DNA of 4,531 nt from a virus (Duplodnaviria; Heunggongvirae; Uroviricota; Caudoviricetes), in IMG/VR virus record IMGVR_UViG_2706794682_000007; one strand, written 5' to 3'. Within the stretch, counting starts at the first letter, position 1. Each line of letters opens with the position of its first letter. Made by a program: the position numbers and the translations under genes. The notes below the pieces were generated by a model, which saw only the letters and a program-made list of their open reading frames with translations, was not told the origin of the DNA and searched no databases. This document shows positions 1,572-4,508 of this stretch, one piece after another.

Positions 1572-1607
1572 GGGCGTTTTATGCCTGACGTTAGAAGAGT
1601 TTCTACA

Positions 1608-1630
1608 ACCCGCCGCCGAGCGGGTTTTTT
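1608..1630 (+). terminator. intrinsic terminator, tR'-like
   Basis: Stem acccgc (1608-1613) / gcgggt (1620-1625) with loop cgccga, followed by a T-run through 1630. Lies about 45-65 nt downstream of the predicted PR' start, so would release a short 6S-like leader RNA in the absence of Q. Confidence 0.75.
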
Positions 1631-1750
1631 ATGACTGAAATCGCGTCAGTACAGTAAACGCGCTGGTGGCGGTGAATACCTGTCTTTCAGCTTGCTGGCT
1701 TTTTCGACAAGAGTTATTGGTGTGTCACGTTAACCGGAAAAGGAAAAGAC

Positions 1751-1948
1751 ATGCTAAAACAGCAGGATATGACAGAAACCGCCAGAGTGGTGTTTAATGA
1801 ATTAAGCGTTACCGAACCGGCGACAGTCGGGGAGATAGCGCAGAATACTTACCTTTCACGCGAACGCTGCCAGTTAATACTGACCCAGCTGGTTATGGCG
1901 GGTCTGGCAGACTATCAGTTCGGTTGTTACAGACGCCTTCCGCAGTGA
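1751..1948 (+). CDS. small helix-turn-helix protein (65 aa), first ORF of the Q-dependent late transcript
   Basis: ATG at 1751 with AAGGA SD about 8 nt upstream. Segment TVGEIAQNTYLSRERCQLILTQL has an HTH-like helix-turn-helix pattern (by eye). Codons checked by hand: both Ile codons are ATA, 2 of 5 Arg codons are AGA, plus one CTA. Confidence 0.55.
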   Translation: MLKQQDMTETARVVFNELSVTEPATVGEIAQNTYLSRERCQLILTQLVMAGLADYQFGCYRRLPQ

Positions 1949-1958
1949 AGGCTTTTTT
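1935..1958 (+). terminator. possible intrinsic terminator overlapping the stop codon of the 65-aa ORF
   Basis: Stem gccttc (1935-1940) / gaaggc (1947-1952), loop cgcagt, then tttttt (1953-1958). The TGA stop (1946-1948) lies in the hairpin. Only a 6-bp stem, so moderate strength. Confidence 0.45.
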
Positions 1959-1975
1959 ATTTGTGGTAAATGGGC

Positions 1976-2006
1976 GGCTGGTGGGTGTTAGGGGCACCCA
2001 CCAGCC
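1976..2006. repeat. GC-rich 12-bp perfect inverted repeat (stem-loop) with 7-nt loop
   Basis: ggctggtgggtg (1976-1987), loop ttagggg, cacccaccagcc (1995-2006); exact reverse complements. No T-run follows, so not a canonical terminator. Lies between the 65-aa ORF and the methyltransferase gene. Confidence 0.6.
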
Positions 2007-2047
2007 ATCTGCTCATGCGTTGGGTTCACAAGCAAACCTCAGGCCCA

Positions 2048-2066
2048 CTGCTTTGCGCAAAAGCAG
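2048..2066. promoter_or_regulatory. near-perfect palindrome ctgctttgcgcaaaagcag, candidate operator
   Basis: ctgcttt (2048-2054), gcgc centre, aaaagcag (2059-2066); 7-bp arms complementary with one extra A. Lies about 35 nt upstream of the methyltransferase ATG. Binding function is inferred only. Confidence 0.3.
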
Positions 2067-2098
2067 AATGAGCCTATCAGAGACAGGCTTAATGATCC

Positions 2099-3157
2099 AT
2101 GCTTAATACTGTAAAAATATCCAGTTGTGAGTTAATCAACGCCGACTGCCTGGAATTTATCCGGTCGTTACCCGAAAATTCTGTTGACCTGATAGTCACG
2201 GACCCGCCGTACTTTAAAGTGAAGCCTGAGGGCTGGGATAACCAGTGGAAGGGCGACGATGATTACCTGAAGTGGCTGGACCAGTGTCTGGCGCAGTTCT
2301 GGCGGGTGCTGAAACCTGCCGGAAGTCTTTACCTGTTCTGTGGTCATCGCCTGGCATCTGATATCGAAATCATGATGCGTGAACGCTTCAGTGTGCTGAA
2401 CCATATTATCTGGGCGAAGCCGTCCGGACGCTGGAACGGATGCAACAAGGAAAGCCTGCGGGCGTATTTCCCCGCCACAGAGCGCATTCTGTTCGCGGAA
2501 CATTATCAGGGGCCGTATCGTCCGAAAGATGCCGGGTATGCGGCGAAGGGCAGTGCACTGAAACAGCATGTGATGGCCCCGCTGATTTCTTACTTTCGTG
2601 ATGCGCGAGCTGCCCTGGGGATAACGGCAAAACAGATTGCAGATGCCACAGGAAAGAAAAACATGGTGTCGCACTGGTTCAGTGCCGGTCAGTGGCAGTT
2701 GCCGAATGAAAGCGATTATCTGAAATTACAGGCGCTGTTTGCCCGGGTGGCAGAAGAGAAGCATCGGCGTGGTGAACTGGAAAAGCTCCACCACCAGCTG
2801 GTGGATACGTATACCTCACTGAACCGGCAGTATGCGGAGCTGCTGAGTGAATATAAACATCTGCGGCGGTATTTTGGCGTGACGGTGCAGGTGCCGTATA
2901 CCGATGTGTGGACGCATAAACCGGTGCAGTTCTATCCCGGGAAACATCCGTGCGAAAAACCGGCAGAAATGCTGCAGCAGATAATCAGCGCTAGCAGTCG
3001 TCCGGGTGACCTGATTGCAGATTTTTTCATGGGGTTGGGTTCGACAGTGAAAGCGGCACTGGCGCTCGGGCGTCGTGCAATTGGCGTTGAGCTGGAGACT
3101 GAACGTTTTGAGCAGACGGTTCGGGAAGTACAGGATTTAGTCAGCCAGAACGGATGA
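2099..3157 (+). CDS. DNA amino-methyltransferase (N6-adenine or N4-cytosine, beta-class motif order), no restriction partner in window
   Basis: 352-aa ORF. Catalytic motif IV DPPY (LIVTDPPYF) near the N-terminus and AdoMet-binding motif I FxGxGS (ADFFMGLGSTV) near the C-terminus; this IV-then-I order is typical of beta-class amino-MTases. A roughly 100-aa insertion between the motifs is a likely target-recognition region. No restriction endonuclease ORF is adjacent. Confidence 0.88.
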   Translation: MLNTVKISSCELINADCLEFIRSLPENSVDLIVTDPPYFKVKPEGWDNQWKGDDDYLKWLDQCLAQFWRVLKPAGSLYLFCGHRLASDIEIMMRERFSVLNHIIWAKPSGRWNGCNKESLRAYFPATERILFAEHYQGPYRPKDAGYAAKGSALKQHVMAPLISYFRDARAALGITAKQIADATGKKNMVSHWFSAGQWQLPNESDYLKLQALFARVAEEKHRRGELEKLHHQLVDTYTSLNRQYAELLSEYKHLRRYFGVTVQVPYTDVWTHKPVQFYPGKHPCEKPAEMLQQIISASSRPGDLIADFFMGLGSTVKAALALGRRAIGVELETERFEQTVREVQDLVSQNG

Positions 3158-3197: not shown

Positions 3198-3273
3198 GGC
3201 CCTTTAGCTCAGTGGTGAGAGCGAGCGACTCATAATCGCCAGGTCGCTGGTTCAAATCCAGCAAGGGCCACCA
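3198..3273 (+). tRNA. ileZ: tRNA-Ile2 type (anticodon CAT, lysidine-dependent AUA reader); by anticodon alone cannot be told from tRNA-Met
   Basis: Hand-folded cloverleaf: acceptor ggccctt/aagggcc, D-stem gctc/gagc, anticodon loop ctCATaa (anticodon 3231-3233), T-arm gctgg-ttcaaat-ccagc, discriminator a, encoded CCA 3271-3273. Nearly identical to E. coli ileX as I remember it. Gene name follows the ileZ-argN-argO trio of Stx phages. Confidence 0.88.
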
Positions 3274-3280
3274 TCACATA

Positions 3281-3357
3281 CCGCCATTAGCTCATCAGGA
3301 AAGAGCGCCAGCCTTCGAAGCTGGCTGCGCGGGGTTCAAGTCCCCGATGGCGGTCCA
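3281..3357 (+). tRNA. argN: tRNA-Arg (anticodon TCG)
   Basis: Hand-folded: acceptor ccgccat/atggcgg (C1-G72), D-stem gctc/gagc, anticodon stem ccagc/gctgg with loop ctTCGaa (anticodon 3315-3317), T-arm cgggg-ttcaagt-ccccg, discriminator t, CCA 3355-3357. Confidence 0.85.
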
Positions 3358-3370
3358 TTATCTGCATCAT

Positions 3371-3447
3371 GCGTTGTTAGCTCAGCCGGACAGAGCAATT
3401 GCCTTCTAAGCAATCGGTCACTGGTTCGAATCCAGTACAACGCGCCA
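3371..3447 (+). tRNA. argO: tRNA-Arg (anticodon TCT, AGA/AGG reader, argU-like)
   Basis: Hand-folded: acceptor gcgttgt/acaacgc, D-stem gctc/gagc, anticodon stem attgc/gcaat with loop ctTCTaa (anticodon 3405-3407), T-arm actgg-ttcgaat-ccagt, discriminator g, CCA 3445-3447. Confidence 0.9.
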
Positions 3448-3487: not shown

Positions 3488-3683
3488 AAATGTCTCACAA
3501 TTCAGACGGTTGACAGTTGTCTGTTTTGCGGGGAGTTTGTTAAAAGAAACTGGCATGGTGAATCCCCCTGTGCGGAGGGGCAATCAGCGAGTAGGTATAT
3601 GGGATAATCGCGGATTCAGGTGCTGGTACTGAATTCACCGGGAGGCACCCGGCACCATGCAATGGCACATAGCGCCACTCTCC

Positions 3684-3710
3684 AGCCCCTCTCCGGAGGG
3701 GCTGTTTATA
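3684..3710 (+). terminator. GC-rich hairpin with U-rich tail at the left edge of the AT-rich island; possible terminator
   Basis: agcccctc (3684-3691), loop tccg, gaggggct (3696-3703), then gtttatattgattttg on the + strand. On the - strand no U-run follows, so it is not a canonical terminator for the convergent gene. Confidence 0.45.
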
Positions 3711-3735
3711 TTGATTTTGTCAGATGTGAGTAAAC

Positions 3736-3769
3736 TCCTTATGGACTTTGTTGTTTTAGTCCATAAGGA
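3736..3769. repeat. 12-bp perfect inverted repeat overlapping the 3' end and stop codon of the reverse-strand ORF
   Basis: tccttatggact (3736-3747), 10-nt loop ttgttgtttt, agtccataagga (3758-3769). The minus-strand stop TAA (3739-3741) lies inside the left arm. Confidence 0.6.
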
Positions 3770-4074
3770 CATATTTGCAGAGTGCAACGGTTATTAAAGC
3801 ATTCATTCAATACGTTATCTGTATTTGTAGGGCATTCCTGGCTATTTTTGATTGAATTCCAGAATGTTTTATTGAATGGTACTACGTTGTAAATGGTTAC
3901 AGGTAGCACTTTGTTATTGAGCATGATGCCTGTGTGAGTCAGTGTAAATATACTTTCAGGAGGTAAGAAAGCATCCGATTGATACCAGATTATTAATTTT
4001 ATTTTACTCCATATGACTGAAAAAGATATTCCGCATGATGGCTGGATAACTGTATCAATCACAATCCACTTCAT
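3739..4074 (-). CDS. hypothetical protein (111 aa) in an AT-rich island, opposite in orientation to the phage late operon; candidate moron
   Basis: ATG is the complement of 4072-4074, with an AAGGA SD (complement of 4081-4085) 7 nt upstream. Hand translation reproduces the ORF-track protein. 6 of 13 Ile codons are ATA and 2 of 8 Leu are CTA, unlike typical E. coli usage. Several Cys near the C-terminus, no obvious signal peptide or TM segment, no family recognised. Possible sigma70 promoter on the minus strand: -35 tttaca (complement of 4136-4141) and -10 tatact (complement of 4115-4120), spacer only 15 nt, so weak evidence. Confidence 0.55.
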
Positions 4075-4319: not shown

Positions 4320-4508
4320 ATGGTGGAAAGAACCATGGCATTTAAACACTATGATGTTGTCAGGGCGGCGCCGCCGTCAGATCTTGCGGAAAAGCTGACA
4401 CATAAACTGAAAGAGGGCTGGCAGCCGTTTGGTAGTCCGGTGGCCATAACCCCTTATACCCTGAGGTGTACTGGCAATAGCGGACACTACCATTTGTTCT
4501 TTTTTTAA
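4320..4508 (+). CDS. small phage protein, DUF1737-like (assignment from memory), probably first gene leading into the lysis module
   Basis: ORF from ATG 4320 (alternative ATG 4335 preceded by a purine-rich stretch ggtggaaaga) to TAA 4506-4508. The motif KHYDVV...EGWQPFG resembles small DUF1737 proteins I recall from lambdoid prophages just upstream of holin genes. G+C content rises sharply at the ORF start. All three Arg codons are AGA/AGG and the single Ile codon is ATA. Confidence 0.55.
   Translation: MVERTMAFKHYDVVRAAPPSDLAEKLTHKLKEGWQPFGSPVAITPYTLRCTGNSGHYHLFFF

Follow-up and report, generated by a model that had tools for sequence, protein, structure and literature searches.

A conserved structured leader RNA that pairs with the start region of a DNA methyltransferase gene in lambdoid prophages

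The 4,531-nucleotide stretch of DNA analysed here (the window; IMG/VR virus record IMGVR_UViG_2706794682_000007, Caudoviricetes) is the late-regulatory region of a lambdoid prophage, and this study concerns a structured leader RNA of ~137 nucleotides (nt) that is encoded on its + strand at 1962..2098 and ends at the ATG of a DNA methyltransferase gene (2099..3157, +, 352 amino acids). Upstream of the leader, the + strand carries an open reading frame (ORF) of 65 amino acids (65-aa ORF; 1751..1948), which is assigned to phrog_331 and encodes a winged-helix protein with a weak TrmB-like match. Further upstream, a tR'-like intrinsic terminator (1607..1632, +; stem of 7 base pairs (bp) followed by TTTTTT; -11.2 kcal/mol) lies 3' of the Q antiterminator gene, in a position that agrees with the RefSeq annotation of an identical E. 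coli prophage locus (L081). Everything downstream of this terminator thus belongs to the Q-dependent late transcript. The leader region is placed inside this transcript also by E. coli strain 203740, where an identical stretch is followed by holin, endolysin and terminase genes.

A preliminary description of this DNA had listed three separate symmetric elements between the 65-aa ORF, taken there to encode a helix-turn-helix (HTH) protein, and the methyltransferase gene, at 1935-1958, 1976-2006 and 2048-2066. All three are present and fold better than shuffled sequences; however, elements 2 and 3 are not separate but are helices of the one ~137-nt RNA. Element 1, T1 (1935..1958, +), had been described as a terminator-like hairpin at the stop codon of the HTH ORF, and its anatomy bears this out: a 6-bp stem (1935-1940/1947-1952, GCCTTC/GAAGGC) with four G-C pairs encloses a 6-nt loop and is followed by TTTTTT (1953-1958), the hairpin folds with -8.9 kcal/mol (z=-2.4), and the TGA stop codon (1946-1948) spans the boundary between the loop and the 3' arm. 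By these sequence and folding criteria T1 is predicted to be an intrinsic terminator. In a Salmonella locus (L021) the equivalent hairpin and T-run are called as a terminator as well, and stem variants found elsewhere stay paired (GCCUCC/GGGGGC, CUGCC/GGCAG and GUCGCC/GGCGGC). Altogether, four terminator-like sites were found in 1400-2300, as compared to 1.1 +/- 1.2 expected.

With the methyltransferase as a handle, 80 loci from different species were gathered, to which two scans of viral contigs added more. DNA similarity is present directly 5' of the ATG in 44 of the 80 species loci, and in total 123 distinct variants of the ~137-nt block ending at the ATG were collected from Escherichia, Salmonella, Citrobacter, Enterobacter, Klebsiella, Kosakonia, Erwinia, Mixta, Morganella, Providencia and other Enterobacterales. 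Mean identity of the leader amounts to 80%; the small ORF reaches 68% and the 5' end of the methyltransferase gene 73%, and the leader is more similar than the methyltransferase in 91% of 171 pairs. The leader is not coding, because it contains indels that are not multiples of three and break the reading frame. Where the upstream gene has been swapped, the leader remains joined to the methyltransferase; the breakpoint lies at ~1961-1968 within E. coli as well as in other genera. The most invariant 21-mer is followed in viral contigs by the methyltransferase at a fixed distance in 114 of 121 cases, and three more cases are truncated by the end of the contig. Likewise, a covariance model (R1) detects one + strand copy per locus, which always ends at the methyltransferase ATG; the match in the window covers 1960-2104 and scores 127 bits. 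A leader query matches, in whole or in part, 2884 of 5426 complete E. coli genomes, with Stx2 phages among the carriers; prophage Sp5 of strain Sakai has neither the methyltransferase nor the leader. In Rfam 15, including all riboswitch classes, no + strand match over 1962-2098 was obtained at E<=1 for the window and six homologous loci, and the sole match over the leader is a sub-threshold one to P26 on the minus strand (24 bits versus a gathering score of 36). The leader is unannotated in the RefSeq and GenBank records inspected, and text and sequence-string searches of the literature retrieved no description of it. It is a widespread, probably cis-regulatory RNA with a well-supported structure that is undescribed in Rfam and in the papers searched.

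Significance of folding was assessed against dinucleotide shuffles. The 1966-2020 region folds with -33.7 kcal/mol (z=-4.9; 0/200 shuffles as good) and 2021-2101 with -26.2 kcal/mol (z=-2.9), while 1925-2110 as a whole reaches z=-3.3 (2/200 shuffles as good). The resulting two-domain fold is the minimum-free-energy structure in most individually folded homologues. Domain 1 is built on H1 (element 2; 1976..2006, +), a perfect 12-bp inverted repeat with arms at 1976-1987/1995-2006. The statement that this stem is perfect and has no U-tail holds: its 12 nt are 100% complementary and no T-run follows, the 3' flank being AUCUGCUCAUG, and a U-run is present only in Xenorhabdus relatives. H1 is lengthened across a 4-nt bulge to 18-20 bp by pairing of segment 1 (AUGGGC; 1970..1975, +) with positions 2011-2016 (GCUCAU) of segment 2 (UCUGCUCAUG; 2008..2017, +), an interaction that holds in 98% of alignment cells. 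Domain 2 is a long interrupted hairpin of similar length that is tipped by the palindrome. Its base is formed by segment 3 (UGGGUUCACAAGCAAA; 2021..2036, +) and segment 4, the initiation region (2087..2099, +), through GAUCCA at 2094-2099 paired with 2021-2026 and GCUU at 2087-2090 paired with 2030-2033. The middle helix joins the 5' strand CUCAGGC.CA (2038..2047, +) to the 3' strand UG.GCCU....GAG (2069..2082, +), which holds a conserved YCAGAG motif; 2038-2044 pair with 2072-2075 and 2080-2082, and 2046-2047 with 2069-2070. The palindrome itself, H4 (element 3; 2048..2066, +), has the arms CUGCUUU/AAAGCAG (2048-2054/2060-2066) and the loop GCGCA, and lies 33 nt 5' of the ATG at 2099. Its arms are nearly invariant, and Providencia and Morganella lengthen the stem with other sequence around GUGCAC or ACGCGU centres. 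A fourth repeat, absent from the preliminary description, was seen at 2071-2089.

The helices are conserved as pairings. Counts were made on structure-blind MAFFT alignments of 43 and 123 sequences, in which the two-domain fold leaves 94.4% and 88.5% of cells paired, respectively, as compared to at most 49% when the partners are slid. Changes on both sides concern 15 pairs and 162 cells, values that 0/500 shuffles reach, and compensatory changes are present in every helix. For instance, one variant (L268) carries AUAGGC/GCCUGU in place of AUGGGC/GCCCGU, with both sides changed and the AUG lost; Providencia-type variants and L258 (and L268) have fully replaced H1 arms and keep the pairing; and the basal 3:4 helix exists in three clade-specific sequence solutions, all of them paired. 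In the middle helix, pair 89-124 of alignment A2 reads GC 86, GU 19 and AU 17, and pair 95-117 CG 80 and UA 19. The preliminary description had named missing conservation and missing compensatory changes in related prophages as what would speak against its proposal; among the 123 variants, conservation and compensatory changes are both clearly found. The strand can be read from the same counts. G·U pairs outnumber A·C mismatches in H1, 1:2, 3:4 and the middle helix (121:13, 78:16 for H1, 111:5 and 25:10; in sum 335 versus 44), and thus the structure forms in the sense (+) RNA. Judged by these substitutions, the two-domain structure is neither a DNA structure nor an antisense transcript.

These data bear on the idea, raised in the preliminary description, of an operator for the 65-aa HTH protein or a host regulator. 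In a wider form of this idea, a methyltransferase promoter would be controlled through binding of one of these, or of the central domain of the methyltransferase, to the palindrome and/or the 12-bp repeat. The palindrome centre is self-complementary in all variants (AGCGCU, UGCGCA, GUGCAC, ACGCGU), as for a dimer site, the HTH gene is adjacent in most loci, and the H4 arms vary too little to show G·U pairs, so that no such evidence assigns H4 to RNA. However, the large excess of G·U over A·C clearly marks the flanking helices as RNA, and the palindrome arms cap a hairpin that covaries. Moreover, palindrome and HTH gene are uncoupled both ways: although most of the 80 species loci carry a homologue of the 65-aa ORF 5' of the methyltransferase, ~12 loci have the palindrome without the HTH gene and ~35 Xenorhabdus/Photorhabdus loci have the gene without the palindrome. 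The 65-aa ORF often accompanies the methyltransferase but is dispensable for it. Scans for promoters on both strands yielded nothing above chance, no sigma-70-like promoter over the palindrome and no promoter-like hexamers nearby. The operator is therefore unsupported, and of all explanations considered here it is the one to which we give the least credence.

What the leader may do is suggested by the gene at its 3' end. The methyltransferase matches Pfam N6_N4_Mtase (PF01555) with E=8e-42, and its N-terminal DPPY and C-terminal FMGLGS (FxGxG) motifs give the order of beta-class N6-adenine enzymes. It probably belongs, by sequence, to the M.EcoGII/M.EcoGI family and probably is a non-specific, toxic adenine methylase: it is 95% identical to the enzyme of phage 1720a-02, which has been called "very similar" to the non-specific adenine methylase M.EcoGII (Murray et al., PMC5778455). 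M.EcoGII stays silent in lysogens; tight control was needed to express it, and uncontrolled expression is harmful (PMC5778455). As read from the sequence, the methyltransferase gene has no Shine-Dalgarno sequence. In the fold of the window its start region is paired, including the A of the AUG, and the start regions of the other clades are paired too. Close to the AUG a single motif is invariant, UGAUC at -6 to -2, and it pairs with G(G/A)UCA of segment 3. Neither the paired start codon nor the missing Shine-Dalgarno sequence had been recorded in the preliminary description. Segment 3 also contains G[G/A]UCAC (2024-2029), corresponding to the bases GAUCAC of the 3' tail of 16S ribosomal RNA, and UGAUC (2093-2097) is complementary to both; the sequestering helix may thereby mimic an extended anti-Shine-Dalgarno contact. 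The invariant GATC before the AUG is a Dam site as well.

A second, competing set of pairings can be drawn in addition to the two-domain fold. Segment 2 (UUCGCU...) is complementary to segment 3 (...AGCGAA), with 2008-2013 facing 2031-2036 and 2016-2017 facing 2027-2028, and this 2:3 helix covaries: in alignment A2, pair 55-81 reads UA 49, CG 33, AU 15 and UG 4, pair 56-80 GC 110 and AU 10, and pair 58-78 UA 82 and CG 37. The ground-state fold cannot explain the covariation of 55-81, because column 55 is unpaired there. Once 2:3 has formed, UGGGC and GUGAGC can pair with GCCCA and GCUUAC, respectively, giving a full second fold that offers each strand another partner. In about 9 of 42 Enterobacteriaceae sequences the energies of the two folds differ by no more than ~2 kcal/mol, and in the rest the two-domain fold wins. 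By analogy, the layout is attenuator-like, that is it follows the classical topology in which 1:2 plus 3:4 alternate with 2:3 and segment 4 holds the gene start. Among the options offered earlier, namely an attenuator, an RNase III site or an operator, the first would fit best. A three-way junction, in which UGGGC:GCCCA closes H1 and 2:3, was considered as the main + strand fold and demoted, because L268 breaks UGGGC:GCCCA yet compensates 1:2, and because most homologues have a lower energy in the two-hairpin fold.

The same three-way junction could instead form, from the complements of UGGGC:GCCCA, 2:3 and H1, in an antisense RNA transcribed from the minus strand and acting as a small RNA (sRNA) on the leader. 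Only on the minus strand is 2:3 a continuous 10-bp helix with G·U pairs, RNAalifold yields -35.7 kcal/mol for this strand versus -23.3 kcal/mol, and the minus strand of the window folds with z=-4.1. However, neither the window nor Salmonella has a promoter-like site on the minus strand, the single match in Providencia is below chance expectation, and no terminator was found on this strand either. The G·U signatures of H1, 1:2, 3:4 and the middle helix all point to the + strand, and the A·C mismatches in 2:3 can be read as by-products of the other fold, in which the C must pair with G in 1:2 and the A with U in 3:4. We consider an antisense RNA decidedly unlikely to explain the locus.

The AUG in segment 1 opens a mini-ORF (1970-2071, +; 33 codons in the window), with a conserved UGUGR 5' of it. 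This AUG is present in 122 of 123 variants behind a GUGA/GUGG motif; the reading frame begins with MGGWWVL in 103 variants and stops in the hairpin loop after seven codons in 31 of 123 variants, or in 23 of 43 species representatives. A small protein encoded in the leader is ruled out by the frame-shifting indels, the range from 3 to >43 codons and the changed peptide in Providencia. Similarly, the tandem Trp codons were tried as a Trp sensor and rejected, since they are the octamer of the recombination hotspot Chi in frame and are gone where Chi is gone. Opening of the leader by a ribosome on the mini-ORF is only one candidate trigger.

With the translational attenuators of ermC and cat the leader would share the arrangement of four segments that pair as 1:2 plus 3:4 or, more tentatively here, as 2:3, with segment 4 at the gene start, here that of the methyltransferase, and a short ORF beginning in segment 1. 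In contrast to them, the leader has no conserved peptide or ORF length, L268 loses the AUG compensatorily, the gene has no Shine-Dalgarno sequence, 2:3 is weak on the + strand, and there is no homology. The logic of 1:2, 2:3 and 3:4 is also that of trp-type attenuators, and tandem UGG codons lie in segment 1/H1 in most variants; however, 3:4 is not a terminator, as it has no U-tract, the Trp codons derive from the Chi octamer and are gone in Providencia, and the weak Rfam match to Trp_leader lies elsewhere, at 1527-1633. Transcription attenuation would mean that H1, with or without its extension, is a second terminator or pause behind T1 that decides on read-through. It would account for the many Xenorhabdus loci with a U-run after the homologous hairpin, as in a true terminator, and for the terminator that is always found just upstream of the leader. 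But the hairpin of Escherichia, Salmonella and Providencia runs into AUUCGCUCAUG and not into a U-tract, the 3:4 helix is followed by coding sequence rather than U's, and Q-modified polymerase ignores terminators, which makes this possibility, too, a poor candidate of low probability. Among phage systems, the com-mom operon of phage Mu likewise has a DNA-modification gene in a late operon whose start lies in a hairpin, with a ~60-aa ORF just upstream; however, Com is a zinc-finger RNA-binding activator overlapping mom, whereas here a terminator follows the upstream gene, whose product is a winged-helix protein that the leader can do without. The lambda cIII mRNA, which has an RNase III site, is another lambdoid phage transcript in which two folds compete and one of them hides the initiation region, but its sequence is unrelated, it serves another gene early rather than late, and the leader described here is much larger.

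Based on these features, we favour, as probable though with reservations, the model that T1 and the leader act in cis in the Q-dependent late transcript, that the leader sequesters the methyltransferase start, and that it moves with the gene. In the ground-state fold the basal helices of 3:4 engage ~15 nt 5' of the AUG and, in the window, its A, which would keep translation very low. Translation would require opening of the sequestering helix, most plausibly by 2:3 pairing as an anti-sequestor, which in turn would require either an occupied segment 1 or an RNA trapped while it is still being transcribed. The tR'-like terminator and T1 would limit transcription to Q-modified polymerase, and the leader would keep initiation at the AUG low or conditional, so that the three together may provide layered containment confining the methylase to the lytic late phase. 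We infer such containment because the gene has no Shine-Dalgarno sequence, UGAUC is paired and the enzyme is M.EcoGII-like. The suggestion that the region regulates the methyltransferase thus agrees with a conserved leader that is linked to the gene and pairs its start codon, and the leader probably is a tight off-switch for a likely toxic enzyme.

Several observations weigh against this model. The mean equilibrium probability of 2:3 is 0.09, and blocking segment 1 and H1 in silico produced no shift of the ensemble, the start region staying closed; any switch would thus have to be kinetic. Mismatches in 2:3 comprise A·C 117 versus G·U 5 plus a tandem C·A/A·C, the better helix being on the minus strand. 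On the 123-sequence MAFFT alignment, RNAalifold recovered only H1 and UGGGC:GCCCA, and the covariation stems largely from few clades and hence from few independent events. The mini-ORF varies between 3 and >43 codons with an altered peptide in Providencia, and it is lost in L268 and several Xenorhabdus loci. Finally, domain 1 outlives loss of the methyltransferase and may therefore have a role of its own. An extended version of the model is a tentative proposal that we regard as possible but rather doubtful: the RNA might swap partners between two states, with six strands that each have two kept partners (1:2, 3:4 and 5:6 versus 1:5, 2:3 and 6:4). What flips it might be a ribosome loading on the AUG of segment 1, an antisense RNA encoded by the same DNA, or some other factor. 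The flip would license the toxic methylase only on translated late transcripts, with a functional Chi site built into the hairpin.

An aptamer would offer another way of choosing between the folds, the leader then being a riboswitch, for S-adenosylmethionine (SAM) or S-adenosylhomocysteine (SAH) for example, or a target of the methyltransferase or the HTH protein in autoregulation. Two alternative folds do exist, the unpaired motifs UGUGRAAAUG, AACCAAG and YCAGAG are very highly conserved, and the regulated gene encodes a SAM-dependent enzyme. However, no Rfam riboswitch matches even at E<=1, the conserved "loops" are largely explained by the alternative pairings, and YCAGAG becomes CAAAAAAGG in Providencia and Morganella, all of which leaves an aptamer very improbable.

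M.EcoGII is widely used for chromatin footprinting. A sequestering leader offers a testable explanation for the silence of M.EcoGII-family enzymes in lysogens and a natural part for tight post-transcriptional control, and it would represent a compact system in which competing RNA folds can be studied in a phage late operon. In whole or in part, it is carried by about half of the complete E. coli genomes, by Stx2 phages and across Enterobacterales, yet is absent from Rfam and the inspected annotations.

The bases of H1 are shared between an RNA helix and a DNA recombination signal. The Chi octamer GCTGGTGG occurs exactly in both arms, on the + strand at 1977-1984 (5' arm) and on the - strand at 1998-2005 (3' arm), which the preliminary description had not mentioned. 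By its exact octamer, the 5' arm of H1 would also serve as a Chi site. Of 122 variants, 105 retain the octamer on the + strand, and 15 have it on both strands. Unlike in a plain Chi hotspot, the octamer here is subordinate to the helix: Providencia-type variants without Chi keep H1, so that RNA structure is the primary constraint. The window contains six Chi sites per 4.5 kb, at 366, 1662, 1977 and 2797 (+) and at 1998 and 2791 (-), versus 0.13 expected, and the identical E. coli prophage L081 has 14 per 12.2 kb versus 0.57 expected. Two bidirectional Chi palindromes are present, H1 and CCACCAGCTGGTGG inside the methyltransferase ORF (2791-2804).

Mosaic breakpoints lie on both sides of H1. 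In some E. coli prophages (L206:2561-3400, L098, L136, L162 and L181), T1, segment 1, H1 and segment 2 are retained, and an AT-rich region and a 237-aa gene take the place of the methyltransferase and the rest of the leader. This gene is annotated as helix-turn-helix domain-containing and looks AraC-like; loci of the L206 type have several G·U pairs in H1. This survival of domain 1 without the methyltransferase would suit a processing or stability element, in which hairpins cleaved by RNase III or protecting against RNase E excise or stabilise the methyltransferase-tRNA segment and occlusion of the AUG is incidental. The extended H1 of 18-20 bp with its 4-nt bulge and a domain 2 of similar length are compatible with RNase III, three tRNA genes needing processing follow, and processing could coexist with translational control. 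It leaves unexplained, however, why the end of the basal helix coincides with the AUG in every clade although the sequence turns over, and why a covarying 2:3 alternative exists, and we consider it unlikely, if somewhat less so than the other alternatives to sequestration of the start region by the leader.

Xenorhabdus and Photorhabdus loci (L043-L080) have a short form of the leader, ~100 nt 5' of the methyltransferase. Its H1-like hairpin covaries freely and often has a U-run behind it, resembling a terminator. Several of these loci contain mini-ORFs of 6-7 codons (MDGWWS, MNGWWIE, MGGGWVG) that stop in the hairpin loop, and a subset has a normal methyltransferase Shine-Dalgarno sequence, GAGAGGAAAAAAGCGGATG. 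A Trabulsiella prophage (L005) carries at 2025-2101 a degenerate second copy of domain 1, consisting of GCTGTGAAGATGGGC and a hairpin (23 bits with R1), directly 3' of a tR'-like terminator and ~800 nt upstream of the real leader.

In the remainder of the window, a RusA-family gene (441-815) precedes the Q-like antiterminator gene (from 812), the middle of which is masked by a run of 248 N (1159-1406). The region from PR' to tR' (1527-1633, +) gives weak, sub-threshold Rfam matches to isrK and Trp_leader and is probably equivalent to StxS, IsrK and lambda 6S, the short late RNAs that end at a terminator. These share with the leader the late-operon area, delimitation by terminators and dependence on Q (PMC7547250), but lie between PR' and tR', whereas the leader is located ~330 nt further downstream. 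The three tRNA genes 3' of the methyltransferase gene (3198-3447, +) have a CAU anticodon, Arg-UCG and Arg-UCU, the first being called Met by ARAGORN versus tRNA-Ile (ileZ-like) in RefSeq; together they make up the ileZ-argN-argO set of Stx-type phages. Just 3' of the trio there is a strong Rfam match to the STnc100 sRNA family (3524-3713, +; 133.6 bits, E=2.5e-30), at the spot that is occupied by the stx genes in Stx phages. It is followed by an AT-rich stretch with a 111-aa ORF (3739-4074, -) and a 62-aa ORF (4320-4508, +).

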